Below are positions 4,149 through 28,947 of a stretch of DNA of 28,951 bases, one piece after another (the first letter of the stretch is position 1; each line of letters begins with the position of its first letter). The notes beneath the pieces are model-generated. The model was not told the DNA's origin. It ran no database searches and worked only from the letters and a program-made list of their open reading frames with translations. A program made the position numbers and the translations under genes. This DNA comes from a virus: IMG/VR virus record IMGVR_UViG_3300005300_000028. One strand, 5' to 3'.

Positions 4149-4352
4149 TCACCTCCTTACCCAACCCCAATCTAACAACTCAACATCCCGCTCATACTCA
4201 ACCTTAACCTCGGAACTCCCGCACTTCGGGCAGAACTTTGCCGTGTCATCCATAAAGTAGAACTCTGTCTTGCAGTTGTTGCATGTGTATGTTACTAACC
4301 CAACTATGTAATCTATCAACCTTTCCCTCGCTTCATCAAGACTTTCACACAT
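4149..4352 (-). CDS. Small Zn-ribbon protein
   Basis: CNNC...CPKC motif. Confidence 0.65.
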   Translation of the reverse strand: MCESLDEARERLIDYIVGLVTYTCNNCKTEFYFMDDTAKFCPKCGSSEVKVEYERDVELLDWGWVRR

Positions 4353-4366
4353 TTAAACCACCCCCC

Positions 4367-4606
4367 CTAACTTAATCTAACAAGCTTCATCTTTTTTAAA
4401 TAATTTTTGAACGGTTCCGATTTAGATATTTCGTCAATATCGTTTTTTGTTACTTCCGATATGACCGATAAGTAGTTTTTAGCCACCTCTGGTACTAAGT
4501 TATAGTATATACATCTCCGTGGAACGTTAGGAGCAAATATCTCTATATCCTTAATTGTGCACCTGTTATCGCTTAACCATACACAGTTTACGCACCTGAC
4601 CATCAT
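4367..4606 (-). CDS. Small Cys-rich hypothetical protein
   Basis: CVNC...C...C pattern; operon position. Confidence 0.6.
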   Translation of the reverse strand: MMVRCVNCVWLSDNRCTIKDIEIFAPNVPRRCIYYNLVPEVAKNYLSVISEVTKNDIDEISKSEPFKNYLKKMKLVRLS

Positions 4607-4749
4607 ATTAGTTCCTTTATTGATTCTACAAACTTTATTAGCACTTTTTTCACGTCATCAACACTCTGAACGTTTATGATTTCGTTCTCTATCTCTTCGA
4701 TGAGTCTTTTAACTTTTTTGCGTTTGTTCAAGTCATCAAGCAACTTCAT
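4603..4749 (-). CDS. Small helical hypothetical protein, 48 aa (MKLLDDLNKRKKVKRLIEEIENEIINVQSVDDVKKVLIKFVESIKELI), missed by the ORF track
   Basis: GGAGGTG RBS upstream; TGA overlaps the ATG of the next gene; fills the gap. Confidence 0.55.
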   Translation of the reverse strand: MKLLDDLNKRKKVKRLIEEIENEIINVQSVDDVKKVLIKFVESIKELI

Positions 4750-5911
4750 CTTTCGCCACCTCCAAAATTTCGTCTTTCATGTGCCTCCACATCTCCTGAA
4801 GGAAGCTCAAAGCTCTTGTTGTTCCCGTTGAACCAAGGATTTCGATTTCACCCATCAAGTATGCCGTTTCAAGGTCTAACTCGTCTTTCGCAAGCCTGAA
4901 CAACGTGTCAACGTCTGTCATTATGGTTAAGTTTACTGCCTTAGGTTCTTTCAGAACAATAAGTTTACCGTCTGTTAATTTCAGGTAAACCTGAGTCACT
5001 ATGTCTCCACCGCTGTGAACAATGAATTCAATCACGTTTCCACCAAATCCGCTATCTGTCAGTTTTTTCAGGTTTACTGATTTGTTCAGCTTAATTATTG
5101 TCTTTGTTACAACCTTCACGATGTTCTTCTTGAACGAATCAGACACCCTCTTCATTATTCTGTCAAGGATACTGCTACCGACTGGTTTTGACTCATCTAT
5201 GCGAGCAACGACTTCATGCATGATTGGTTCGACTTCTTCAGGAATTACTGGAACACCAGCTTGAATTATTTCAAAGATATCAGGGCTTAGCGGAATATCG
5301 CCAAGGAACGGAACGTTAAACTCTCTGCAAATCTCCTGAGTTTTTCCGTCGCCAAAGAACTTATACACCGAACCGTGTTCACACTTGAAATAAGCCATGT
5401 TGTTAATTACTCCGAGAACTGGAACGTTGTAATATTTCAAGATGCTGAGGATTCTCTTAAGGTCTCGCCAAGATGAAGGGATAGTAACGACAACAGCACC
5501 GACAATGGTTTGATAGTAAGCCTTTAAAACACCTCTGAACAAATCAGATGCTCCAGCAGGGCAATCTATTATCATTATCGCGTTCTTTAGGTTTACTCTC
5601 CACTCTGCAAACTGTAAAACATCAAGCAACATCTGAACGTAGCTGTCTCCCCGCATTGATACTGCTTTGTCTTTTGTTACTAAACCGAAACTGAAGAAGT
5701 CTAAGTTGTCAAGGTGAACAACCTCAATTCTGTTTGGCTCTATGCGGATTTCTTTGTCTATTTTCAGCATATCGGCAAGATTTGGACTGTCTACGTCTGC
5801 ATCAACCAGTATGGTGTCTCTACCCAGCTGGCTGAGATAGGTAGCAAGGAAAACTGACGTTGAAGACTTTCCTGTTCCTCCTTTAAGCGAAACAACCAGA
5901 ACGGTTTTCAT
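4736..5911 (-). CDS. Mrp/NBP35 (MinD/ParA superfamily) P-loop ATPase fused to a C-terminal SCP2-like lipid-binding domain
   Basis: Deviant Walker A KGGTGKS, DADVDSPN, IDCPAG, GVINNMAYFKCEHG...FG and FLGDIPL are all Mrp-like. The C-terminal ~110 aa with TIMTDVDTLFRLAKDELDLETAYLMGEIEILG resembles the SCP2 consensus (ti..d..tf..l..g.l....af..Gki.i.G). Confidence 0.75.
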   Translation of the reverse strand: MKTVLVVSLKGGTGKSSTSVFLATYLSQLGRDTILVDADVDSPNLADMLKIDKEIRIEPNRIEVVHLDNLDFFSFGLVTKDKAVSMRGDSYVQMLLDVLQFAEWRVNLKNAIMIIDCPAGASDLFRGVLKAYYQTIVGAVVVTIPSSWRDLKRILSILKYYNVPVLGVINNMAYFKCEHGSVYKFFGDGKTQEICREFNVPFLGDIPLSPDIFEIIQAGVPVIPEEVEPIMHEVVARIDESKPVGSSILDRIMKRVSDSFKKNIVKVVTKTIIKLNKSVNLKKLTDSGFGGNVIEFIVHSGGDIVTQVYLKLTDGKLIVLKEPKAVNLTIMTDVDTLFRLAKDELDLETAYLMGEIEILGSTGTTRALSFLQEMWRHMKDEILEVAKDEVA

Positions 5912-9645: not shown

Positions 9646-9986
9646 GGTCTCACCTCCAGAACCTCAACTAAAAACTTTGCAACCGCATCGGGACAGCTTG
9701 TTGCTCCATTCGGTCTTAGTTCTGGGTGTGGACATCTGATATGTTTTAGTGTATCGACAATGGCTTCTGGGTCAACACCAGACCTTAATGCAACCGAAAT
9801 AACTCTGCCAAGAGCTTCAGCCCAAGCCCTGATACACTCCCCGGGCTTGTCTGCTGTAATGAACACCTCAAGTGGTCTTTCGTCAAACGTAACGGTTATA
9901 TACAGCTTCTTTCCGCACATCAAGCCAAATTTCCCTGTTACATTCGGTAAAGACTTTGGTCTGAGTTTGGGTCTCACAAGCTCCAT
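9606..9986 (-). CDS. Stand-alone TSCPD domain (C-terminal domain of class II ribonucleotide reductase NrdJ)
   Basis: CGKKLYITV...PLEVFI...EALGRVISVALRSGVDPEAIVDTLKHIRC...TSCPDAVAK. Confidence 0.85.
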   Translation of the reverse strand: MELVRPKLRPKSLPNVTGKFGLMCGKKLYITVTFDERPLEVFITADKPGECIRAWAEALGRVISVALRSGVDPEAIVDTLKHIRCPHPELRPNGATSCPDAVAKFLVEVLEVRPWNSSEIKNSSEE

Positions 9987-10669
9987 AACGTTACCCCCTC
10001 CTCATCAAATTCACACCTAATCTGATATTCACACCAAGAACAGTGAACACCTTTGTTTTTAGGCAGATATCCCGTTTCAATCATCCGTTTCATGCGGTTA
10101 ATCTCTTCTTCAATTTCCGGTTCAAGCTTTTTCGGGATTTCTATCACTTTGTTATCTCTGAGATAAACGAATAATATGCGATTAACTTGATATCCTGCCT
10201 TTTCAAGCAAATAACGATATATATTGCCCTGTCTTATATCATCGAGCTTTAGATACAAGAATTTCCCCGTTTTCCAATCTATAATCGTATTGTTGCCGTA
10301 GAAATCAATAATTCCGCTTAAATGGTCTGTAATCTCAATTCTCTGCTCAACAAATTTCGGCAGATATTCTTCCCATGTGTTTAGTCTCTCTGCTTCAAAT
10401 TTAATGAAATTGTTTAGGATTTTCCTTGTCTGCTGGTCACTGCCAACCTCAACACTGACTCTATTAACTAAAGCCTTGATTTCGTCTACGCTCTTTGGCT
10501 TCCCCTGAAGCCTTGTAAAGTAAAGGTAAATGATGAAGTGAATCTTTTTGCCAAATTCCGCTTCAGGATGCTCTATTTTCAGTCCTTCAATCCCTTCGCT
10601 TAGCCAGTACCATCTCTTTGGGCATTGATAGAATAAGTTCAGCTCTGATGGACTGACCACGGGAGTCAC
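9974..10669 (-). CDS. Cas4/AddB-like PD-(D/E)xK exonuclease with a four-Cys Fe-S staple
   Basis: SPSELN..QCPKRW, GKKIH, GIID...IIDWKTG, QGNIY and CSWCEYQIRC. Confidence 0.8.
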   Translation of the reverse strand: MTPVVSPSELNLFYQCPKRWYWLSEGIEGLKIEHPEAEFGKKIHFIIYLYFTRLQGKPKSVDEIKALVNRVSVEVGSDQQTRKILNNFIKFEAERLNTWEEYLPKFVEQRIEITDHLSGIIDFYGNNTIIDWKTGKFLYLKLDDIRQGNIYRYLLEKAGYQVNRILFVYLRDNKVIEIPKKLEPEIEEEINRMKRMIETGYLPKNKGVHCSWCEYQIRCEFDEEGVTLWSL

Positions 10670-19096: not shown

Positions 19097-19585
19097 TCAT
19101 TCTATTACTTTAAGCGTCGTACCTAACACAAATTGTTCAGCCAAATCGAGTTCACCAAAAGAAATCGCAAGCTGTCTAAGCAGTTCAATCTGCTTTTTGA
19201 TAGTTCTGCGTTCACTGATTTTAGTGGTTTCATTGTATTTTCGCTTTAAGTCGTTGAACTGAAGCTTAAGTTGAAACCTAACTTTGCTTTTCAGTGTTTC
19301 ATCACTGCTCGGTGCGTATTCAAGAATATAGATGTCGTTTCTGACGTTCAGTTCGTTAAAAAGTTTAGTATAATGTTCAACGAGTCTCTTTGCCCTGTCA
19401 TATTGCTTTGCCGGAAGAACGTAGACCGAATAGTTTATCCTTGTGCCCATGCTTTTGAGTTCATTGACGAAATTGTTAATTAGTCTGTTCCATTTTGTAA
19501 CCAGTGCTCTTTCGCTTTGGCTGACCAGTTCAAGTGGTGGCGGTCTCTGGATGTCGTACACTATACTAAAATACTTCCCCATCAT
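19097..19585 (-). CDS. Hypothetical protein with a Cas2/PaaX/ChrB-N-like ferredoxin-fold N-terminus and a helical C-terminus
   Basis: IVYDI...GTRINYSVYVLP motifs; likely start 19585. Confidence 0.5.
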   Translation of the reverse strand: MMGKYFSIVYDIQRPPPLELVSQSERALVTKWNRLINNFVNELKSMGTRINYSVYVLPAKQYDRAKRLVEHYTKLFNELNVRNDIYILEYAPSSDETLKSKVRFQLKLQFNDLKRKYNETTKISERRTIKKQIELLRQLAISFGELDLAEQFVLGTTLKVIE

Positions 19586-19605
19586 CTTCTCACCTCCTCC
19601 AAATT

Positions 19606-19995
19606 TCACAACGATTCGGTTACCATCTCGACCTTCAAGATTTGTTTAAACTCTTTAAACCTCAAGTGGCGAGTCATACCAACTGCTTCAAGTATTACAT
19701 CGCTGTCAGGATTGTATTCTGAGCAAAATTCGCCTTTGCAGTTCTGATGAATCGCTTCCATCTCTGCCCAGATCCACACGATGTCTCTGTACTGTGCTAA
19801 TGCTGCAATCATCGATAGCGGCAGCACCACAACAGCATACTGAGCACCAGCCGACTTAATGTCGTAATACACTTCTCTGACGTCTCTGAATGTTTTACTG
19901 ATTTGTATTACTTCTACGTCGTCACCAAGCTTCTTTTTCAATTCGTTGAGTTGAGCCGGTAACGGTTTATGTCTACTAACCCATGCAACTTTCAT
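19606..19995 (-). CDS. Small alpha/beta (Rossmann-like) protein with an N-terminal SRH motif
   Basis: MKVAWVSRHKPLPAQLNEL...AVVVLPLS; family not securely identified. Confidence 0.6.
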   Translation of the reverse strand: MKVAWVSRHKPLPAQLNELKKKLGDDVEVIQISKTFRDVREVYYDIKSAGAQYAVVVLPLSMIAALAQYRDIVWIWAEMEAIHQNCKGEFCSEYNPDSDVILEAVGMTRHLRFKEFKQILKVEMVTESL

Positions 19996-20180: not shown

Positions 20181-22130
20181 TCACCTCACTATTTTGTTAA
20201 TCACGAGATTAAACAACCGTTTCGGCAATTGTTCTATATCCACCACTTCTTCCCACGTCCATTCAGGACCGAACACTCGTCTCATGATTGTCTCTGAAAC
20301 TTCTACATCAATGAACAGCGTGTACACATTAATCCCTGACCTTCTTGCTCTTTCTATTGCTTCTCTTGTCCACTCAAAGAGTATATCGCTCGGATAGCGT
20401 CCGTTTTCAGGTGCCCCATCTGTTATCAGTACAATCATTTTTCTCTGTGCCGTTGATTTGTTAAGCAAGTTTACTGCATAATGAACTGCCGCCCATGTTG
20501 GTGTATAGTTATCTGGAAAAACACTGCAAATCTCCTCTACAGTTTTTAGTTCTCTCAAGTACACTGGATTACCTCCTTTCTCGCAACTGAACGCTATGAC
20601 TCTCATGCTCACGTTTTTGACTTTCTGTAACGCTAAGAACAGCGTTGCACACGCAGACGATGCTATACTGATTTTATCTCCTTCCATTGAACTGCTTGCA
20701 TCAAGAAGAATTACGATATCAAATCCTGTATCTATTTCTTCATTTTCGAATGGGAGTCCGTTTTTGGTTACTTTGTGTTTTATAGTTTCATCGATATCGA
20801 AGTCTAACCCAGTGATGTCGTTGTCAACTCTCATTTTGTTCTTAATTTTGTTAAGTACTTTCGCAATTCTGTCAGCTAAGACAGTATCTGGTTTCGAGTG
20901 TGGCCGAGAGTAGAATTGAATATCGCTACTTGTTCTTACAAATATGTTCTTTTTCTCAAAGTTATTAGGATTTATACTTTTGATTTTCTTCAGTTTCTTC
21001 TCAATTTCTTTCAACATCTTTAGCCCTTCAAGTTCGGCTTCTCCCAAAATCTCTTTGACGGGTTTCTCGAATATACTTTCGTCAATGTCGTTATGATTTG
21101 TAATACTTTCATATTCAGTTTTAGGTAATGATTTGACGCTATCAGGTAAAATAGATTCGAGTTCTTTAGAATCGATATACTCTGACAGCTTTTTTTCTGT
21201 TACTTCTTCTTGGTTCTCTTCCCCTGTCTCTTCTTTTTCTTGATTCTCCTTTTCTGTCTCTTCTTCTTCTTGGTTCTTTTCTCCTGTTCCTTGGTTATTC
21301 TCTCCTCTTTCTTCTTTCTCTCCTGTCTCTTCTTGTTCATCCCTTTGACGTTTTCCATGTTCATTTCCTCTTTCGCTCCCTTGTTCATTTTTAGTGTCTT
21401 CTTCTTGTCCTCCCTCACGCTCTCTTATTTCTTTCGTCACTGTTACTCTTATTTCACTTACTTCTTCTACTTCATCTTGCGTGTCTGATTCACTTCCAAC
21501 TACGACATATACATTACGTTTAAAGTACTTCTCAAGGAGTTTCAATGTCTCCACAGTTGCTACAATACTTGCCTTCCATGACTTCCCCTCGACAGTTTTT
21601 AGTATTTTCAAGAACTCTCTGCAAACCTCCTTGAGCTCTGGGTCACTGATTTCGTTCAAAACATCTGGGTCGCAACGGACAGCATTTAGAATGTCAACTA
21701 TGTGGTCACTGATTATCAGGTCTTTTGCAACAGCCTTTAGTTGCTCTTCTCTGACAACCTTAGAACCACGGTAGAACTTGTTCCACATCCAGTCTACTCG
21801 GTAGTCCTCGATGATATTTAAGAGGTATCTGATGATAATAGATAAGTATGTGTAAGATTCCACGTTTATCTCTTTTCTAATTATGTCTACTGCCTTATCC
21901 ATGTCAGGAGTTTTAAAAACCACATGAGAAATCTCGTGTTCGAACCTCCTATAGTAAAATTTCCAAGGTTCATTACTGTACCTTGGCATTAGAATCTCTG
22001 CACTCTTCTCTTTAATTTCTACTGCAGGTCTATCTACGTCGGTAAACTTTAGCGATACGTATTTTCCACTCAAATGCTCAAAAATTTTCTTTGTCTTGTG
22101 TAAAACTGACCTCTCTATTGACTTCATCAC
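20181..22130 (-). CDS. vWA-domain protein (CobT/NorD-like MoxR partner) with an N-terminal HExxH domain and an acidic linker
   Basis: FEHEISH...NIIEDYRVD, E-rich repeats (EETGEENQE), and MIDAS motifs DASSSM, TPT and ITDG. Confidence 0.85.
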   Translation of the reverse strand: MMKSIERSVLHKTKKIFEHLSGKYVSLKFTDVDRPAVEIKEKSAEILMPRYSNEPWKFYYRRFEHEISHVVFKTPDMDKAVDIIRKEINVESYTYLSIIIRYLLNIIEDYRVDWMWNKFYRGSKVVREEQLKAVAKDLIISDHIVDILNAVRCDPDVLNEISDPELKEVCREFLKILKTVEGKSWKASIVATVETLKLLEKYFKRNVYVVVGSESDTQDEVEEVSEIRVTVTKEIREREGGQEEDTKNEQGSERGNEHGKRQRDEQEETGEKEERGENNQGTGEKNQEEEETEKENQEKEETGEENQEEVTEKKLSEYIDSKELESILPDSVKSLPKTEYESITNHNDIDESIFEKPVKEILGEAELEGLKMLKEIEKKLKKIKSINPNNFEKKNIFVRTSSDIQFYSRPHSKPDTVLADRIAKVLNKIKNKMRVDNDITGLDFDIDETIKHKVTKNGLPFENEEIDTGFDIVILLDASSSMEGDKISIASSACATLFLALQKVKNVSMRVIAFSCEKGGNPVYLRELKTVEEICSVFPDNYTPTWAAVHYAVNLLNKSTAQRKMIVLITDGAPENGRYPSDILFEWTREAIERARRSGINVYTLFIDVEVSETIMRRVFGPEWTWEEVVDIEQLPKRLFNLVINKIVR

Positions 22131-23281
22131 TTCACCTCTACACCGAATATCGAGTAAATTCTTTGAGCAACTGTCTTCTTCTCGTTCTTATCTTCGTAGC
22201 GGTTGACAACCGTGTTCCTCAATGCCATTTTCAGTGCATTCATGTCATCAAGAACGCTTCTGTAGCTGTTGTAGACCTGAGCGAATATTGCTAAGTCTCT
22301 TGTACTCAAAGCATAACTGAGGTCACCTGCGGCATATCCATTTCTGGTTTCAATTGCCAGTGTGATTAACAACTTTCTCAGGTCTTGGTCGAGGTCACTG
22401 ATTTTCTCCAGAATTCTTGACTCCTCATCTTCTAACGGATAATCAATGTAAACTTCTGCAAATCTTGACCTCAAGTCCTCATTGAGTTCATGAACACCAC
22501 CGTAGTACGATGGGTTCATTGTACCGACTATCAAGAGTTTACAACCGTTTTCGAGTCTGTAAATCTTGCCAATCTCTGGTATGTAGACGTGTCTTCGCCA
22601 GTCCAATAGCTGATTGAGCACTTTCTGCATTTGTGGTGTCAGAGCATTAAGTTCCTCGAAAACGAGAATCGCTTTTCCGTACTGGTTCGCCACTGTGATT
22701 GCCACTGGCATTACTCCGAGCTCATATACAACCTCATCACCGACTAACAAGAACCTGCCTACCAAGTCCTGCCTCTTGGTGTTCTCTGAGCAATCGAATT
22801 GAATAATTGGTATGTTGTGCTTTGCGGCAAATGCGGCAATACTCAAGGTTTTTCCGACTCCTTTTGGACCGACAAGCAAGAGTGGAATTCCGCTCTCCAT
22901 GTGAGCTTTGAAAAGCTGTTCTTCGTAGTCTCGTGGTACGTATTCGGGAACACTCTTTGGTAGATAGTCTTCAGCTTTCACTGGTAGAATCTTGATTCCG
23001 TTACTGGCTTTTTCCTCTGGTCTTACGAAGTTGTTAATTGTTTTCTGAGGTATAGTTGCCTGAACCGGAAGTGCCATGTCTCTGTAAATTGTTACTGTTT
23101 TATTGGTTAGGCTCACTTCAACTTTGTACCCCATTTCCTTGAGTTTTTTCCCGACAGTTAGGAGGACGGTGTTGTCGTTTTCTTCCCTGTAGTTGTAGCC
23201 TCTAAATTGCTTGAGCAACTCACGACACTCACTCAACCCTAAAACAGTAACTTTTTCATCTACTAAGTTTTTCCATTCCAT
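22127..23281 (-). CDS. MoxR/CbbQ/NirQ-family AAA+ ATPase
   Basis: GPKGVGKT, DLVG, Walker B variant FEELN, and TMNPSYYGGVHELNEDLRSRF. Confidence 0.88.
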   Translation of the reverse strand: MEWKNLVDEKVTVLGLSECRELLKQFRGYNYREENDNTVLLTVGKKLKEMGYKVEVSLTNKTVTIYRDMALPVQATIPQKTINNFVRPEEKASNGIKILPVKAEDYLPKSVPEYVPRDYEEQLFKAHMESGIPLLLVGPKGVGKTLSIAAFAAKHNIPIIQFDCSENTKRQDLVGRFLLVGDEVVYELGVMPVAITVANQYGKAILVFEELNALTPQMQKVLNQLLDWRRHVYIPEIGKIYRLENGCKLLIVGTMNPSYYGGVHELNEDLRSRFAEVYIDYPLEDEESRILEKISDLDQDLRKLLITLAIETRNGYAAGDLSYALSTRDLAIFAQVYNSYRSVLDDMNALKMALRNTVVNRYEDKNEKKTVAQRIYSIFGVEVK

Positions 23282-23285
23282 TTTA

Positions 23286-23633
23286 TCACCTCCGCAAAAT
23301 TTTTTCTTTATTCTTTATCCTACTAATTGTGAACCATACCGCATTTGCAAATTCTTCAAAGTCCTTGAGGTTTACTGAAACTATACCGTCTTTTACTTGA
23401 AACACTATAACGTTGTTTTCCTCTGCCACATCCCTGAAAAACTCGATAATCTCCTTCGAAGAAGTGTTTTCAAGCTTTTTCCTGAAGTTTTTGACGTTTA
23501 AGGTACAAAAGTCAGACGGATATGCTTCAGAAAACACAGTTTTGTCATAAAGGTCAACATATACTATTACGCTACCGTTCTCTGTCCTGCAAATGAACCT
23601 CACCATTTCAATTTCCATTCTCGTCACCTCCAC
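23286..23633 (-). CDS. Hypothetical protein
   Basis: Co-oriented ORF with an RBS; no motif recognised. Confidence 0.6.
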   Translation of the reverse strand: MEVTRMEIEMVRFICRTENGSVIVYVDLYDKTVFSEAYPSDFCTLNVKNFRKKLENTSSKEIIEFFRDVAEENNVIVFQVKDGIVSVNLKDFEEFANAVWFTISRIKNKEKILRR

Positions 23634-23639
23634 AAAAAA
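23634..23639 (-). terminator. Oligo-T tract immediately after the AcrIII-1 fusion stop codon
   Basis: T6 on the minus strand; similar tracts at 26545-26550, 27696-27702 and 28277-28293 follow other stop codons. Confidence 0.35.
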
Positions 23640-24350
23640 TTAAATTTGCACTAAGAAGAATTTAAATTGCAACTGTTTCAGCTCTTCTTCTGACAACACT
23701 GTTCCTTCTGGAAGTCTCTGTAATAGCTGAAATACTATCAGCCTGTCGCCTTTCTTGAGCTTTATCTCTTTCCTCTCTGCTTTGACCTCAGTTCCGAGCA
23801 GTTGCGAAAGTATTTTCGCTGTTGACTCGTGTCCAATAGCACTCTCTACTTCTTCATTAGCGATGATTTGCTTCACCGTATCAACATCAACTACTTTGAT
23901 GCTTATTGTTGCTTCTTCTGTTTCGAGCATGTTCAAGCTGAACGCATTAGCAATGTATGTTTTGCTTGTTTTCTTGTTCTTCTCACGTTCAAAGATTTCA
24001 GCTATCTCTTTGATTGCTCTGATTCTATCTGATTTCGTGTCAAAACTTCCAACGTAGAGCTGTTCAATTTTCTCAGCTGTAACCCTAACCAAAGCGATTC
24101 CTGTCGATGGGTGCTTCGTTGAGCCACTCGCAAATGTTGCAACAACGAACGCCCCAACATGGACTTTGTCATCAATCCATGCTGGGTCTCCTGTCACCCG
24201 AAGAAATCTTCCTTCGAATGCAAACCCATTCTCCTTGCTTACATCGACACGTTCGAGCTCTTTTGCCCAAACTGTTCTTTTGGCCTTGCGTGGTCTCCCT
24301 AAATCAAGGTCTCCTTTCTCAAGTATTACTACATTTCCATCCACCAACAT
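23640..24350 (-). CDS. acrIII-1: Fusion protein: unknown ~129-aa N-terminal domain plus C-terminal DUF1874/AcrIII-1 ring nuclease (about 23640-23963)
   Basis: YIANAFSLNML, SAIGHESTA (catalytic His), ERKEIKL..GD and QRLPEG.VL match STIV B116/SIRV1 gp29. No internal ATG at the domain boundary; likely start 24350. Confidence 0.88.
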   Translation of the reverse strand: MLVDGNVVILEKGDLDLGRPRKAKRTVWAKELERVDVSKENGFAFEGRFLRVTGDPAWIDDKVHVGAFVVATFASGSTKHPSTGIALVRVTAEKIEQLYVGSFDTKSDRIRAIKEIAEIFEREKNKKTSKTYIANAFSLNMLETEEATISIKVVDVDTVKQIIANEEVESAIGHESTAKILSQLLGTEVKAERKEIKLKKGDRLIVFQLLQRLPEGTVLSEEELKQLQFKFFLVQI

Positions 24351-24351
24351 C

Positions 24352-24786
24352 TTACTCACCCCCTAAATAATAAAATGTAACAAAATACGAGTCATAAACT
24401 CTTGTTATCTTCATAGCCCATTTCAGATTCTCAACTCTGACTTCAAAAGTCTTGAATCCATCGTGAACCCCGTATTCTTTAACTGTGGTCTTGGCATCTT
24501 CGTTCACGATTAACTTGCTATCTGTGTTTCTGGTTTCGTCAGGTTCAACAAGATTGAACCTCCACTCGTTGTCAGCTCTGACATAGTCAATCCCCAACAT
24601 TCCGTCCTTTGCGTTCTCCTCAACAAGTCTCAGAAGTTTTTCTGCCTTCTCAAAGTCCATCTTTTTGACTCTCGGCATTCTTTTGAAGAAGTTACTAACT
24701 TCCCTATATGCTCTCTCTCTTCTCATCCTCACTTCTCTCCTGAAAGACTCCAACTCAAAACCAGTTTTTTCCATCCCTGTTTTCAT
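24352..24786 (-). CDS. Hypothetical protein, first gene behind a BRE-TATA promoter
   Basis: ATG at 24786 with a GAGGTGAG RBS. Confidence 0.65.
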   Translation of the reverse strand: MKTGMEKTGFELESFRREVRMRRERAYREVSNFFKRMPRVKKMDFEKAEKLLRLVEENAKDGMLGIDYVRADNEWRFNLVEPDETRNTDSKLIVNEDAKTTVKEYGVHDGFKTFEVRVENLKWAMKITRVYDSYFVTFYYLGGE

Positions 24787-24821
24787 CTTACTCACCTCAA
24801 CATAAGTTAAACCTCAAGGTA

Positions 24822-24853
24822 TATAAACCTTTCGGTTGTCAAAAAGGTTTATA
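24822..24853. promoter_or_regulatory. BRE-TATA promoter (minus strand CGAAAGGTTTATATA) paired with an inverted copy (plus strand AAAGGTTTATAAA)
   Basis: 11-bp inverted repeat TATAAACCTTT (24822-24832) / AAAGGTTTATA (24843-24853); same core as the repeats at 28886-28924. Confidence 0.7.
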
Positions 24854-26519
24854 AATTGGATAATAGAGTTCTTTGCACTTTCTTTTTACCTTTCTTCTTC
24901 TCGAGGTGCTCCATTTTATTTCTGTTGAACTCAGAAGAATACTCTCTTATCATGGACTCGTACTTCTTGGCGAACTTCCTTGCAATTTCGAAAGGTGCTG
25001 AAGATATATACTGAATCACTTGAGGATAAGTATCGAGCCTATATTCTGACTTCCTTTTTCCATTATTGACATATTCCTTTATTTTTTTGTCAAGCGAAGA
25101 CAGTAGCTCGACAAACGATAACTTAGGTTTTGGTTCTGGCTCATCACTTTTCTTGAACACGAACACGAAATCGTAAGGCATTGGGTCTTTCTGCTCTACA
25201 TGGAACGAAATTTTGTAGTTGTAAACCGGTTGACGTAATACGTCTACGTGTTTGAAACCGGCTCTCCTTAGTGCCAAGACGAAAGCCGCCATGACATTCA
25301 TGTCTCCAATGTTGAACGTCGATATAAGGTGACCTCCATGTTTCAACACTCTGAAACACTCTCTGAAAACCTGATATAGTCCGTCTTCATATTCTCTAAG
25401 CCCAATTCTTCTTGTGCTGTTGATAGAAATCTCTGTTTTTGGTGCAGACAGGCCAAGCCAGACTAAGTAGAAATCTGAGAGTTCGGCATACTGTATAATG
25501 TCGCCATAAGGTGGGTCTGTTATAACTGCGTCTACACTTTCATCAGGAATGAAAGATAAGTCTCTTGAGTCAGCTTGAACCACCATGTAACTTGCGTCTT
25601 TTTGCAACTGGCTGAAGTCAGAAGCCTCTTTGGCATAACTACCGATTTTACTGTTGGTGTATGTCTTGCCTCTGATTACTTTGTCTACTCTCCTGCAGAA
25701 AACTTCCCACAAGTTGTTCTCTGTATAGTCTTTAGCAACCCAGTATGTGTTGAGTGTCCAGTCCATTAATTTAGTTTCACCTCCTTTGAGATGTTTGGAC
25801 ATTTTTGAAGACCATTCGAGCATTGAACTGAATGTGAACATCATGAAATCCCTGATTTTGTCGTCTTGAATTTGTGTGATTGCGTCTCTGATATGACTTA
25901 ACATTATCAGACTCCTTGGACTTATAAGCTCATGGAAATATCTGAAACCTTTCTGAATTAGTCTGTTTGTCGTGTCTCCTTCCGGTATTTGAACAACAGG
26001 GTACCACTTAGGTGGAATGTCAGGAACTTTTTCGAACTCCTCTAAACCTGATTCAAGGAAAATCTTTGAGTTACAACTTTTACAGTATATAAAAGCTAAG
26101 AACGGTCTATCATCAGCCAAATATCTTCTGATGTACCTGACCATAGTATTAGAACCACACTCTGGGCATTTGGTTCCGTATAGTTCCCATGCGAGTGGCT
26201 CTAACTGAGTTTTTAGTTGGTTGAACACCTCCCGATATGCGTAAATGTTCAACGGTTCAACTTCTTTTTTCATAACCATGCACGCAAGAGGGTTCAGGTC
26301 AACAGCAACAACTTTCCTCCTCAGGATAAGACCTTCAATCAGTGTAGTACCACCGCCAGCAAATGGGTCTAAAATTATGTCTCCGGGTTCTGTGAACACT
26401 TGAATTATTTTACTGAACACTTTCCATGGCCTCCGAGCCCAGTACTTGTGCATAAAGTAGACAGGAGTATACGCTGTTGTCTCTAAAATACCTAACCCCA
26501 ACATATTACTAGTAACCAT
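24849..26519 (-). CDS. Amino (N6-A or N4-C) DNA methyltransferase with an internal Zn ribbon (COG1743-like)
   Basis: HKYWARRP, motif I DPFAGGGT, CPEC...CKSC and motif IV TDPPY. Likely start 26519 or 26504; the track extension to 26654 overlaps the upstream gene. Confidence 0.88.
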   Translation of the reverse strand: MVTSNMLGLGILETTAYTPVYFMHKYWARRPWKVFSKIIQVFTEPGDIILDPFAGGGTTLIEGLILRRKVVAVDLNPLACMVMKKEVEPLNIYAYREVFNQLKTQLEPLAWELYGTKCPECGSNTMVRYIRRYLADDRPFLAFIYCKSCNSKIFLESGLEEFEKVPDIPPKWYPVVQIPEGDTTNRLIQKGFRYFHELISPRSLIMLSHIRDAITQIQDDKIRDFMMFTFSSMLEWSSKMSKHLKGGETKLMDWTLNTYWVAKDYTENNLWEVFCRRVDKVIRGKTYTNSKIGSYAKEASDFSQLQKDASYMVVQADSRDLSFIPDESVDAVITDPPYGDIIQYAELSDFYLVWLGLSAPKTEISINSTRRIGLREYEDGLYQVFRECFRVLKHGGHLISTFNIGDMNVMAAFVLALRRAGFKHVDVLRQPVYNYKISFHVEQKDPMPYDFVFVFKKSDEPEPKPKLSFVELLSSLDKKIKEYVNNGKRKSEYRLDTYPQVIQYISSAPFEIARKFAKKYESMIREYSSEFNRNKMEHLEKKKGKKKVQRTLLSNL

Positions 26520-26559
26520 ATTACTACATAAAAACTTTTTGTAGAAAAAATGTAAAGAA

Positions 26560-26817
26560 TTACTTAAAGTAAATCCTCCACTGCACACCAAACAGCTCAA
26601 ACTCTGGTTTCCTGACCTCCAAGAACCATTGCATCGACAGTCTCCTGCCATCACTTGGTTTCAGTTTAAAAACGACTCTGTCTTCTGTCCTTTCAAGAAC
26701 TCTGTCTATCTCCATTCTCTCCCTTCTCAGCCTCCTTGATATTCCATAGATTGTCTCATCACTGACCCAATCAGGTAAGTTCATCAGTGCTAAAGACACA
26801 AAGTCAAAGTTTACCAT
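26560..26817 (-). CDS. Small hypothetical protein
   Basis: GAGGTG RBS before the ATG at 26817. Confidence 0.6.
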   Translation of the reverse strand: MVNFDFVSLALMNLPDWVSDETIYGISRRLRRERMEIDRVLERTEDRVVFKLKPSDGRRLSMQWFLEVRKPEFELFGVQWRIYFK

Positions 26818-26828
26818 GTTTTCCACCT

Positions 26829-27161
26829 CTACCCAAGGTTTAGCCATCTAATTATTGCCTCTTTGATTTTGTCGTCAAGTTCGTAAGGCATTCTGAAGCT
26901 TTCAGTCTCGTGAATCGCATAACTCTTTCCGTCCTTCGTGTAAATGTATAATGATACATAGCCCTTGTTTGACTCGTAGTATCGCATAACCGCTATTGTG
27001 CTGTCTGGTAAGTGGTAAACCGCTGGTTTCTTGGTCGTTGTCCCTATCTTCTCGATAGTTCCATCACTTTTTATAGCATAGACACCGAAACCAGAAGTCC
27101 GGGCACTCCACGCCCATTCATGGTAGCTGACTACCAACTTCCCGTTTTTCCACTCTACCAC
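26829..27161 (-). CDS. Small beta-rich hypothetical protein
   Basis: GGAGGTGA RBS before the GTG at 27161. Confidence 0.6.
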   Translation of the reverse strand: MVEWKNGKLVVSYHEWAWSARTSGFGVYAIKSDGTIEKIGTTTKKPAVYHLPDSTIAVMRYYESNKGYVSLYIYTKDGKSYAIHETESFRMPYELDDKIKEAIIRWLNLG

Positions 27162-27174
27162 CTTAATCACCTCC

Positions 27175-27672
27175 TTATTTGTTATTTCTCTTCTTCGCCA
27201 ACTTTGCGAATTTTGCAAGTGTTTTAGCTCCTTGAATTGCGGTTTTCCTTTGAATCTGTACATTGTATAATGTTATCTCCAAACCATTCCTACAGTAGAC
27301 TAAAGCAACATTTACAGCGTCTTTATAGATTCTTAGCTCAATGAACAAATGTGCAACATTTGTTAGCATTGACAATATCGTTACTCTCTCGTCTTTTATA
27401 ATCTCTTCCACGTAAACCATCTCTCCAACTTCTGTTTCGTCAAAAAGTCCGTCGAAGATGTCCCTCAGAAAATCCTCAAGTTCAGCGGCAACAGTATAAA
27501 ATCCTTCATTGAGAAAAGCCATCAATCTGTACCCTGTCGGTATAAGCACTCTCTTAAGATACTGATAGTCTCCAATGCCTTCTCTCTTAACCACATAACT
27601 GACATTCTCCGCCAGTTCCTCCCTGTTAAGCCATTCCACATATTGCCTGAATCTTTCCCGTATTTCCTCCAT
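27175..27672 (-). CDS. Hypothetical protein
   Basis: GGTGAGGAGA-ATG at 27672. Confidence 0.65.
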   Translation of the reverse strand: MEEIRERFRQYVEWLNREELAENVSYVVKREGIGDYQYLKRVLIPTGYRLMAFLNEGFYTVAAELEDFLRDIFDGLFDETEVGEMVYVEEIIKDERVTILSMLTNVAHLFIELRIYKDAVNVALVYCRNGLEITLYNVQIQRKTAIQGAKTLAKFAKLAKKRNNK

Positions 27673-27702
27673 TCTCCTCACCCCCCTATATATATAAAAA
27701 AA

Positions 27703-28044
27703 TTACATTACTTCACCAACAACAGGTTCGACCACCAAAAACTTGTACGGTAGCTGTTTCAACTCCTCTTCTGTCAGGATTTTCCCCTCAGGAAGCCTTT
27801 GCATAAGTTGGAAGACAATGAGTTTGTCGCCGTACTCTATCTTCACCTCAGTTCTGTTCATTGGAACCTCAACTCCAAGCAACTGGCTTAACAACTTTGC
27901 TGTGGCCTCATGACCAACGGCACTCACGAACCCTTTAGATATCATCCTCTTTATCCACTTAATGTCCTCTGGATATATCAAAATCAATTCTCTCTCATGC
28001 CTCAGCATATTTAAGCTAAATGAATTAGAGATGTACACTGTCAT
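27703..28044 (-). CDS. acrIII-1: Stand-alone DUF1874/AcrIII-1 ring nuclease (anti-CRISPR, type III)
   Basis: YISNSFSLNML, SAVGHEATA, NRTEVKI..GD and QRLPEGKIL; ATG at 28044 with a GGAGGTGAGGAGA RBS. Confidence 0.92.
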   Translation of the reverse strand: MTVYISNSFSLNMLRHERELILIYPEDIKWIKRMISKGFVSAVGHEATAKLLSQLLGVEVPMNRTEVKIEYGDKLIVFQLMQRLPEGKILTEEELKQLPYKFLVVEPVVGEVM

Positions 28045-28049
28045 TCTCC

Positions 28050-28259
28050 TCACCTCCTCCCCGCAAGACAGTAAAACAGTTCGTCAATCTCTTTTACAAG
28101 TTCTTGATAACACTCCGACATGTCAGACTCTGACAGTTCTTTAAGGTCTCTTCTTATTTGTTCAAGTCTCTTTATAAGTTCTGTTAGCTCTTCAATTCTT
28201 CTTCTGGCTATGTATATTTTTTCGTCAATTCTTCTCTCAATCAGCCATGCCAAGTACAT
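28050..28259 (-). CDS. Small coiled-coil hypothetical protein
   Basis: Heptad pattern and GGTGAG RBS. Confidence 0.6.
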   Translation of the reverse strand: MYLAWLIERRIDEKIYIARRRIEELTELIKRLEQIRRDLKELSESDMSECYQELVKEIDELFYCLAGRR

Positions 28260-28294
28260 AATCTTCTCACCCCCACAAAAAAGACAAAAAAAAG

Positions 28295-28852
28295 TTAAAG
28301 ATATGTCAATTCGATTAGACCTCTCTCTGCTAACTTTTCAATAAGCTCCCTGAATTTGTATGATTTACCTCTGCGTTCAGGATATAGCGAATAATAGGCT
28401 TCCTTAACGGAATCGAAGACATTGTCCACGTTTTGTAGCCCCATTTTTGTCCCGAGTTCTGTGGTTTTCACCTTAACCTTAAATCCGAATCTCTTGTTCT
28501 CTGTTTTCTCTGTTTTCTCTGTCTTTCTTTCCGATTTTGGCATAATGCCAAAAAGCGGAATTCCAAGTTCACTCTGGATTTTTTCAATGTTACTCCTTAA
28601 GGCCATATTGTACTCTCTTCTCTGTAAAACCAAAGAGTGTTTTTTGTCCTCAAGTTCTTTCAATTGAGCCCTGAGCTCAACGATTCTCTTTTCGACACTC
28701 TCAATCTCTGTCTCAACCTTTTTCAGTTCTACGCTTAACTTCTTTATCTTCTCAAAAACCTCTACAATCTCAGTACCGGCGCCTGCAGGCTCAAATCCGT
28801 TCTTTTTGGCGCCGGATTCCTGAACTGCGTTTTCAACTTTTTCCATTCCCAT
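28295..28852 (-). CDS. Coiled-coil protein with a basic C-terminal domain; first gene behind the tandem promoters
   Basis: Long heptad repeat and a KTEKTEKTE repeat; ATG at 28852 after GAGGTGA. Confidence 0.65.
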   Translation of the reverse strand: MGMEKVENAVQESGAKKNGFEPAGAGTEIVEVFEKIKKLSVELKKVETEIESVEKRIVELRAQLKELEDKKHSLVLQRREYNMALRSNIEKIQSELGIPLFGIMPKSERKTEKTEKTENKRFGFKVKVKTTELGTKMGLQNVDNVFDSVKEAYYSLYPERRGKSYKFRELIEKLAERGLIELTYL

Positions 28853-28885
28853 TTTTTTCACCTCACTATTAAGTCAACGTCTCGA

Positions 28886-28947
28886 TTTATAAACCTTTCG
28901 CTTAAACTTTTTATAAACCTTTCGGTTTAAATTTTTATAAAATTTTC
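28886..28947 (-). promoter_or_regulatory. Tandem 24-bp-spaced BRE-TATA boxes (minus strand CGAAAGGTTTATAAA)
   Basis: TTTATAAACCTTTCG at 28886-28900 and 28910-28924; degenerate third copy TTTATAAAATTTTC at 28934-28947. Confidence 0.75.

Follow-up and report, generated by a model that had tools for sequence, protein, structure and literature searches.

We analysed a 28,951-nucleotide stretch of DNA deposited as IMG/VR virus record IMGVR_UViG_3300005300_000028 (hereafter the window, which is nearly the whole of a 29-kb metagenomic contig) and found that it carries two divergent ring-nuclease genes of the DUF1874/AcrIII-1 family, one coding for a stand-alone enzyme and the other for a protein in which the nuclease follows an N-terminal domain of an unnamed family. 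Of the viral ring nucleases AcrIII-1 is the most widespread, and its anti-CRISPR action in natural infection is debated. To judge from their sequences, the two copies are xenologues of different source and not duplicates of one another, and both look catalytically competent. The reading that we favour, and hold to be reasonably probable, is that both are active ring nucleases directed at cyclic tetra-adenylate (cA4), of separate origin and made together, the gain being one of dose or back-up, with a further function added by the N-terminal domain of the resident, fused copy.

The stand-alone gene (27703-28044, minus strand, ATG at 28044) encodes 113 amino acids, and the fused gene (23640-24350, minus strand, ATG at 24350) encodes 236 amino acids in one continuous frame, with the DUF1874 domain at its C-terminal end (23643-23960, minus strand; about residues 134-238 of a 239-amino-acid frame). 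Each open reading frame (ORF) can also be read from an in-frame GTG (27703-28053, 116 amino acids, and 23640-24359, 239 amino acids); ATG 28044 is the start used by the orthologues of the stand-alone protein, which begin at MTVY, and by the database, and ATG 24350 is that used by the orthologues of the fused protein. Both copies belong to PF08960 (STIV_B116-like; cut-off 26 bits), the fused one with 98 bits (E = 3.9e-28, residues 135-233, profile positions 2-100 of 101) and the stand-alone one with 94.5 bits (E = 4.9e-27, profile positions 1-100 of 101). The stand-alone copy is also matched by phrog_5063 (E = 5.5e-32). The two DUF1874 domains are identical at 60 of 105 positions (57%; BLASTP, E = 6e-40), in good agreement with the figure of about 55% that had been obtained by eye in the original prediction, made from the letters of the DNA.

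The active site of the family is defined by the cA4 complex of SIRV1 gp29 (bioRxiv 10.1101/778746), which served as the reference for our active-site alignment. All the catalytic and cA4-contact residues of gp29 are present in the fused copy, and N8, S11, N13, H47, T50, R66, Q81, R85, E88 and L92 (gp29 numbering) are common to both copies. Within the set of cA4 contacts that was examined (N8, S11, N13, S49, T50, R66, Q81, the lid arginine R85 and E88) there is a single departure, S49 being replaced by alanine in the stand-alone copy; this position is likewise alanine in the solved AFV3-109, and the orthologues nearest to the stand-alone copy have serine there. The general-acid histidine (H47 of gp29) corresponds to H177 of the fused protein and to H48 of the stand-alone one, in a column that is invariant in alignments A1 and A3. 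That both copies keep the active-site residues, as had been claimed from inspection of the translations, is thus confirmed with S49A as the sole exception.

Evidence on the fold came from an AlphaFold2 (AF2) model for the fused copy and from sequence matches to solved members for the stand-alone copy. The model of the whole fused protein has a predicted local distance difference test score (pLDDT) of 89 and a predicted template-modelling score (pTM) of 0.61, and in Foldseek its C-terminal half retrieved 6scf (E = 7e-11), 2x4i (TM score 0.90) and STIV B116 (2j85; root-mean-square deviation 1.9 Å). Among the sequences of the Protein Data Bank (PDB), the stand-alone copy matched AFV3-109 at E = 5.8e-21 and SIRV1 ORF114 at E = 2e-17, with the solved members spanning 5.8e-21 to 2.9e-15.

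The two genes had been called paralogues, and a phylogeny had been proposed to separate duplication from independent capture. In a careful maximum-likelihood tree (59 sequences, 109 columns) each copy falls in a clade of its own, which argues for independent capture. The stand-alone clade (9 rows) is monophyletic with support 99/95 and the fused clade (7 rows) with support 96/92; with support 96/86 the fused clade is joined to further viral sequences, namely P0114, P0045, P0009, P0126 and the SIRV1/STIV pair, and the stand-alone clade lies outside this group. Five orthologues of 236 amino acids share the architecture of the fused protein at 78-94% identity, and a separate series of orthologues, of 113-114 amino acids (65-86% identity), belongs to the stand-alone protein. 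Members of the stand-alone clade also share a conserved extra C-terminal tail (V-x-G-E-V-M) that is without counterpart in the fused clade. As each copy has closer orthologues elsewhere, a strongly supported clade of its own and a separate syntenic setting, the two did not arise by duplication inside this genome, and the term paralogue has to be given up in the sense of a duplication. A recent duplication, which we considered separately, was ruled out by the tree, by synteny and by the DNA alignment of the two copies, in which there are no long identical tracts.

Some relatives depart from the usual form of the family. P0025, a protein of 100 amino acids in the stand-alone clade, has T-N-E in place of the G-H-E motif and QQLLE in the region of the lid arginine; it could be a relative that has lost catalysis, or a copy in decay. 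P0009 (143 amino acids) carries an N-terminal zinc-ribbon extension of the type CxxC...CPxC, and P0008 (213 amino acids) a helical C-terminal extension of ~100 amino acids.

The fused copy is the resident one, since it is syntenic in sister contigs that have no second copy within +/-10 kb. Contigs L001-L003 are collinear with the window from the 147-amino-acid gene (98% identity) through the replication genes, and they have, within +/-10 kb, the fused copy only. For L001, L002 and L004 the lack of a second copy is judged from this range together with the lengths of the contigs. The stand-alone copy sits in an accessory block of 4 kb that is specific to the window (24849-28861, minus strand); in a tblastn comparison of the window ORFs with L001-L004 this block was absent from the syntenic L001-L003, where an integrase region is found instead. 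It contains an N6/N4 DNA methyltransferase, ORFs of 95, 110/144 and 168 amino acids, the stand-alone AcrIII-1 gene, and ORFs of 69 and 188 amino acids (the 144-amino-acid ORF is called in the database as a product of 110 amino acids). An 83%-identical fused copy is present in L004, a different element of the primase/D5 type, and an 82%-identical stand-alone copy, with no fused copy, is present in the IMG/VR contig G001 (47 kb, CheckV 81% complete), whose family-B DNA polymerase (PolB) is 31% identical to that of the window. A search of IMG/VR with peptide patterns found no fused protein. Both genes circulate among unrelated elements of the habitat, and the window has one of each.

Purifying selection is apparent in both lineages. 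By the Nei-Gojobori method the ratio of nonsynonymous to synonymous substitution rates (dN/dS) is 0.05-0.15 for the fused gene (0.06-0.12 for the N domain and 0.07-0.17 for the C domain) and 0.11-0.18 for the stand-alone gene, in comparisons in which synonymous sites were often saturated. On these values selection maintains the two lineages, as well as each half of the fusion.

A further link between the two lineages lies in their gene neighbourhood. In G001/L008, L094-L098 and L099-L101, stand-alone genes stand in the order ORF of ~145 amino acids, DUF1874, small ORF (a TRAM protein in G001), AAA_5 ATPase and HExxH/DUF2201-VWA protein. The fused gene in the window (20181-24795) has the same order as these stand-alone orthologues (L008 365-3757; L094-L101), being followed downstream by a MoxR-type AAA+ ATPase (22127-23281, minus strand; Pfam AAA_5, E = 1.7e-17, and CbbQ_C) and an HExxH/VWA protein (20181-22130, minus strand; Pfam VWA, E = 2.6e-11). 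The order thus recurs in three divergent hot-spring virus lineages (the window with L001-L003, G001 with L094-L098, and L099-L101), and the other IMG/VR DUF1874 loci do not have it. BLASTP could not align the window's MoxR protein with that of G001, and the VWA partners align weakly, at the HExxH segment alone (E = 0.007); what recurs is therefore a gene order of like families, for which orthology is not proven. It is probable that the fused and stand-alone lineages are positionally equivalent, and that in the window the stand-alone copy was moved away from its place before MoxR.

That the two genes are physically linked is supported by independent contigs. Contig L102, from another Joint Genome Institute (JGI) sample, matches the window from 26560 to 27784 at 99.7% identity, and a Logan contig of run X2 spans 24229-26876 without a mismatch, so that these overlapping pieces connect the stand-alone gene, at its 3' end, with the fused gene, at its 5' end. 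Depth along the stretch is even in run X2 (9.5-11.8). A node of ~75 nucleotides (26925-26999), inside the 110/144-amino-acid ORF, has in the same run a depth of ~100 against ~11.5 in its flanks, with several alternative continuations and loose ends; a more abundant element in the same spring has this segment, and P0179-P0184 are homologues (65-75% identity). One might suspect from this node that the assembler had joined genes of two co-occurring related viruses at a common segment, all the more so as the window-specific block begins at a promoter that related elements share. We regard such a chimera as very improbable, given that L102 crosses the node at 99.7% identity, that the X2 contig has no mismatch over 24229-26876, that depth is equal along the whole stretch, and that the ORF across the node is intact. 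Joints that could be taken for recombination between the copies (23844/27948 and 27890/23811 in runs X3-X5, with sides of 34 nucleotides at 85% likeness) were read as a third DUF1874 variant of which pieces map to each of the two genes, and not as a sign of recombination.

The two genes lie in separate transcription units on the minus strand, headed by the same promoter core. The 12-mer GAAAGGTTTATA, which combines a transcription factor B recognition element (BRE) and a TATA core, has three exact sites in the window, all on the minus strand. One (24822-24833) heads the unit of the fused gene, with an inverted near-copy at 24842-24853 on the plus strand, and two in tandem (28888-28899 and 28912-28923, spaced by 24 bp, with a weaker third at 28936-28947) head the unit of the stand-alone gene. 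In the latter unit the promoter is followed by the 188-amino-acid ORF, a T8/T6 tract, the 69-amino-acid ORF, the stand-alone gene (its ATG 5 nucleotides past the stop of the preceding ORF), a T7 run, and the 168-amino-acid ORF onwards. In the former the order is promoter, 147-amino-acid ORF, fused gene with an overlapping start, T6 run, 115-amino-acid ORF, MoxR and VWA. The fused gene is thus second and the stand-alone gene third in its unit, neither being proximal to the promoter. The T7 run abuts the stop codon of the stand-alone gene (27696-27702, minus strand) and is a candidate archaeal terminator or attenuator; the T6 run abuts that of the fused gene (23634-23639, minus strand). Runs of six or more T number 11 on the coding strand of the 29-kb window, and these are two of them.

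The original description of separate promoter units, each gene followed by an oligo-T tract, accordingly stands, with the qualification that neither gene comes first in its unit. The proposed difference in timing finds no support at the level of the promoter, as identical BRE/TATA cores head both units, which makes it probable that the two genes belong to the same temporal class. The same promoter is found, exact, upstream of the orthologous 143-amino-acid gene in L001-L003 and directly upstream of a variant without the N domain in L036. Exact copies of GAAAGGTTTATA are confined in the window to the heads of the two ring-nuclease units, as part of an inverted pair in one and as tandem copies in the other, and the shared region could be an early or anti-defence regulatory region with operator-like symmetry.

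The N-terminal domain of the fused protein (23970-24350, minus strand; ~127 amino acids) is predicted to be rich in beta structure with one long C-terminal helix. It has no match in Pfam, PHROG or the PDB sequences. An exhaustive phmmer search recovered 46 relatives, mostly stand-alone proteins of 130-190 amino acids and a few long multidomain ones, and no Pfam domain was seen in the 10 that were scanned, long multidomain ones included. The conserved motifs are W-A-K, N-G-(Y/F)-A-F-x-G and G-S-x-x-H-P. An AF2 model of the domain (39 sequences) reached a pLDDT of 94.3, with about ten strands and the long helix; Foldseek found nothing below E = 0.3 in PDB and BFVD, the best hit of the VIA-wide comparison (Z = 4.5, the N-terminal domain of AcrIF24, 62 residues aligned) is at noise level, and a comparison with the protein atlas gave no usable match.

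Relatives of the domain occur in small-ORF regions typical of mobile elements, and the family ranges over a Methanobacteriaceae prophage-like region and contigs of Bathyarchaeota, Thermotogae and Bacillota. In a natural in-frame deletion, P0022 (L036, 1682-2100), from a Great Boiling Spring viral-fraction contig, the first six codons (MLVDGN) are joined to the linker FEREKNKK, leaving a ring nuclease of 123 amino acids directly behind the same promoter. The N domain is thus a module that the nuclease fold can do without, as seen from its stand-alone relatives, from this deletion and from the pTM of 0.61 of the full-length model combined with high per-domain pLDDT; the last of these also suggests that the two domains are held on a flexible tether. 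In L087, a contig of a Methanobacteriaceae metagenome-assembled genome, the homologue of the domain (1261-1722) lies ~2.5 kb from a protein with a pseudomurein-binding repeat and a C39-like peptidase (4151-4819). Such a protein is a typical lysis enzyme of methanobacterial viruses, and the L087 region is for this reason probably a prophage. Another relative is on a Bathyarchaeota contig together with a DUF932 protein and a helix-turn-helix protein.

Taken together, these observations can be accommodated by the following scenario. The resident fused gene, at a conserved site upstream of the MoxR-VWA pair, would have gained an in-frame, tethered domain from the unnamed mobile-element family, and the stand-alone gene would have come with, or into, the accessory block with its orphan DNA methyltransferase, its orthologues holding the equivalent position before MoxR in a distantly related hot-spring virus lineage. 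With a common promoter core, both genes would be made in the same temporal class. Each protein would dimerise and bind cA4 at the dimer interface, where the conserved histidine would act as general acid in the conversion of cA4 to linear A2>P, and the removal of cA4 would switch off the cA4-activated CARF effectors of the host. The most likely benefit of having two genes would be more, or more robust, cA4 clearance by dosage or back-up, while the N domain could add a function to the resident copy, for instance a binding partner, a localisation or a second target. The separate units and the nearby orphan DNA methyltransferase fit a counter-defence role, and strong type III CRISPR pressure in the host may be supposed.

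Several points weigh against this scenario. The tree rests on ~109 columns, and the SIRV1/STIV pair forms a long branch in it; of the 51 kb of the sister contig L002, 20 kb was examined. The expression levels of the two genes may differ, as neither is promoter-proximal and the T8/T6 tract lies between the promoter and the stand-alone gene. Purifying selection was measured between lineages and not on the pair in this genome, so that either of the two might have arrived here recently and be carried as a neutral passenger. Lastly, under its native middle/late promoter the AcrIII-1 homologue of SIRV2 does not work as an effective anti-CRISPR, and it serves a different function (bioRxiv 10.1101/2023.01.10.523387), from which it follows that ring-nuclease chemistry does not guarantee an anti-CRISPR role.

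This last precedent bears directly on the alternative that one or both copies have a main role other than anti-CRISPR, either linked to MoxR-VWA or as a moonlighting binder of proteins. SIRV2 gp37 inhibits a host lysine methyltransferase (bioRxiv 10.1101/2023.01.10.523387; PMC11065993), and the recurrence of the DUF1874-MoxR-VWA order in three divergent lineages also speaks for it. We nevertheless consider this alternative unlikely: the strict conservation of cA4-binding and catalytic residues in both copies (bar S49A) and in both clades would be difficult to account for if cA4 were not cleaved, the stand-alone copy is intact outside the MoxR neighbourhood, and other IMG/VR DUF1874 loci lack the association altogether. 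Of about the same low probability is a subfunctionalised pair, in the form of an asymmetric DUF1874 heterodimer with one arm or of a free, diffusible enzyme beside a tethered, targeted one. Dimerisation is obligate for DUF1874 enzymes, whose cA4 site is a composite one (Athukoralage et al., bioRxiv 10.1101/778746), and domains that are 57% identical, share their ligand-contact residues, are probably co-expressed from identical promoter cores and include one with a seemingly flexible attachment (pTM 0.61) might pair. Against pairing, close relatives have one form only, presumably as homodimers, and lineages that evolved apart in different viruses have been under no selection for a hetero-interface.

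A split specificity, also put forward in the original prediction, with one copy acting on cA4 and the other on cA3, cA6 or a signal of the cyclic-oligonucleotide-based anti-phage signalling system (CBASS), has little to recommend it. The copies do differ at 43% of positions, in the V-x-G-E-V-M tail and in one contact, S49A; however, 10 of the 11 ligand-contact and catalytic positions of gp29 are identical, the S49A change recurs in AFV3-109 and is reversed to serine in the nearest stand-alone orthologues, and neither PMC8284326 nor 10.1101/2024.09.24.614671 describes another specificity for a DUF1874 enzyme. We thus give it only a very slight chance. One might also speculate that the N domain is a new counter-defence module, binding a host defence or signalling protein or acting as a second enzyme, and that the ring nucleases are then non-redundant, one free and one tethered, possibly as a one-armed heterodimer. 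This is a long shot; if true, the N-domain family would be a new anti-defence family, present in archaeal and bacterial mobile elements.

Two copies per genome are rare. Among 50,697 deposited phage and archaeal-virus records, all 60 records that matched one query have a single DUF1874 place (the other query matched 56 records), and in a survey of 80 DUF1874 loci, 63 IMG/VR contigs among them, a family hidden Markov model found two genes within +/-10 kb in the window alone, against a single one in each of the roughly 75 other loci. A candidate two-copy virus, IMGVR_UViG_3300013099_000018 (L054/L055, 104,260 bp), was discarded, its opposite-orientation matches being mirror-symmetric about the centre and probably a palindromic head-to-head artefact. 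In cellular type III loci, ~4% of those positive for a ring nuclease have more than one (10.1101/2024.09.24.614671).

The closest known system is AcrIII-1 itself, as represented by SIRV1 gp29 (2x4i/6scf), STIV B116 (2j85) and AFV3-109 (2j6b), which the window enzymes resemble in Pfam family, predicted fold, catalytic histidine and cA4-contact residues. The stand-alone copy is also equal to these in size and single-domain form, and both copies are likewise borne by a hot-spring virus-like element. The window differs in having two divergent genes, one of them with the ~127-amino-acid domain of the unnamed family; moreover, the SIRV1/2 gene is in a middle-stage operon (PMC11065993), whereas the window operons share a strong-looking BRE/TATA core. 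In the Csx1-Crn2 fusion of Marinitoga (8y6z/8y7f/8y7g; Samolygo et al. 2020, PMC7293037), to which both copies (E = 2e-6) and the fused model (E = 1e-7) have weak matches, DUF1874 is likewise at the C-terminus of a larger protein, but it is joined there to a CARF-HEPN effector of a cellular CRISPR locus to make a self-limiting RNase, whereas its partner in the window is an unrelated beta-rich domain in a mobile element, and neither CARF nor HEPN is present. Csx16, a CRISPR-locus ring nuclease distantly related to DUF1874 with demonstrated activity (10.1101/2024.09.24.614671), has a PADLOC model that matches both copies (E = 1.9e-15 and 9.4e-22); it covers a part of the model (positions 26-98 of 105), with a lower score than the full-length match to PF08960. 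Several homologues of one anti-CRISPR family in a single viral genome are known from AcrID1, with 12 homologues in SIRV2, some under a common anti-defence promoter and diversifying in coding and regulatory sequence (PMC11065993). There the expansion is of a Cas-binding protein within rudiviruses; here the two copies are of an enzyme and were acquired from separate lineages.

We take the window to be a virus or virus-like mobile element of a hyperthermophile, probably an archaeal one. Contigs of 28,951 and 29,060 bp are on record in the database. Every sizeable gene is on the minus strand, and the gene content includes PolB, an RFC-like clamp loader, an XPF/ERCC4 nuclease, a ParA/Mrp-SCP2 protein, UbiA and GGR-like lipid enzymes and, as identified by Pfam and PADLOC, the MoxR-type AAA+ ATPase with its VWA partner and the orphan N6/N4 DNA methyltransferase; integrases are found in related contigs. 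All sequencing runs that contain window sequence are labelled as hot-springs metagenomes, and the JGI samples behind related contigs bear names such as GBSCECS85c and GBSSSed77C, which we take to be Great Boiling Spring samples at 77-85 °C. No tRNA gene, and so no host clue, was found in the window or the related loci, and a near-DNA search of the window against phage records gave no match. Pfam and PADLOC scans of most, not all, of the larger window ORFs detected no Cas10, Csm/Cmr or CARF gene (no scan for CRISPR repeats was made), and matches to Cas families were limited to a virus-type, Cas4-like PD-(D/E)XK nuclease (9974-10669; PF01930, E = 4.2e-7) and a weakly Cas2-like ORF of 170 amino acids (19097-19609; Pfam E = 5.8e-5, PADLOC E = 3.1e-5). 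This ORF, 88% conserved in L001-L003, may be a virus-borne Cas2 homologue. In those scans neither ring nuclease has the position in or beside a type III CRISPR-cas locus that marks Crn2.

The two-copy state is rare, but it is a variation on a known anti-CRISPR theme and a modest extension of known biology. It amounts to a natural experiment, in which a single type of promoter heads two intact copies that differ in source and have diverged in sequence, one of them being tethered to a further domain. Enzymes from an environment of ~77-85 °C would also be very thermostable cA4 nucleases. The most useful leads are the unnamed N domain and the set of one-copy, two-copy and deletion genotypes: the former could give a first functional handle on a domain family of mobile elements, and a comparison of the one-copy sisters, the two-copy window and the N-domain deletion could reveal whether it is dose, tethering or some second activity that sets the limit to escape from type III signalling.

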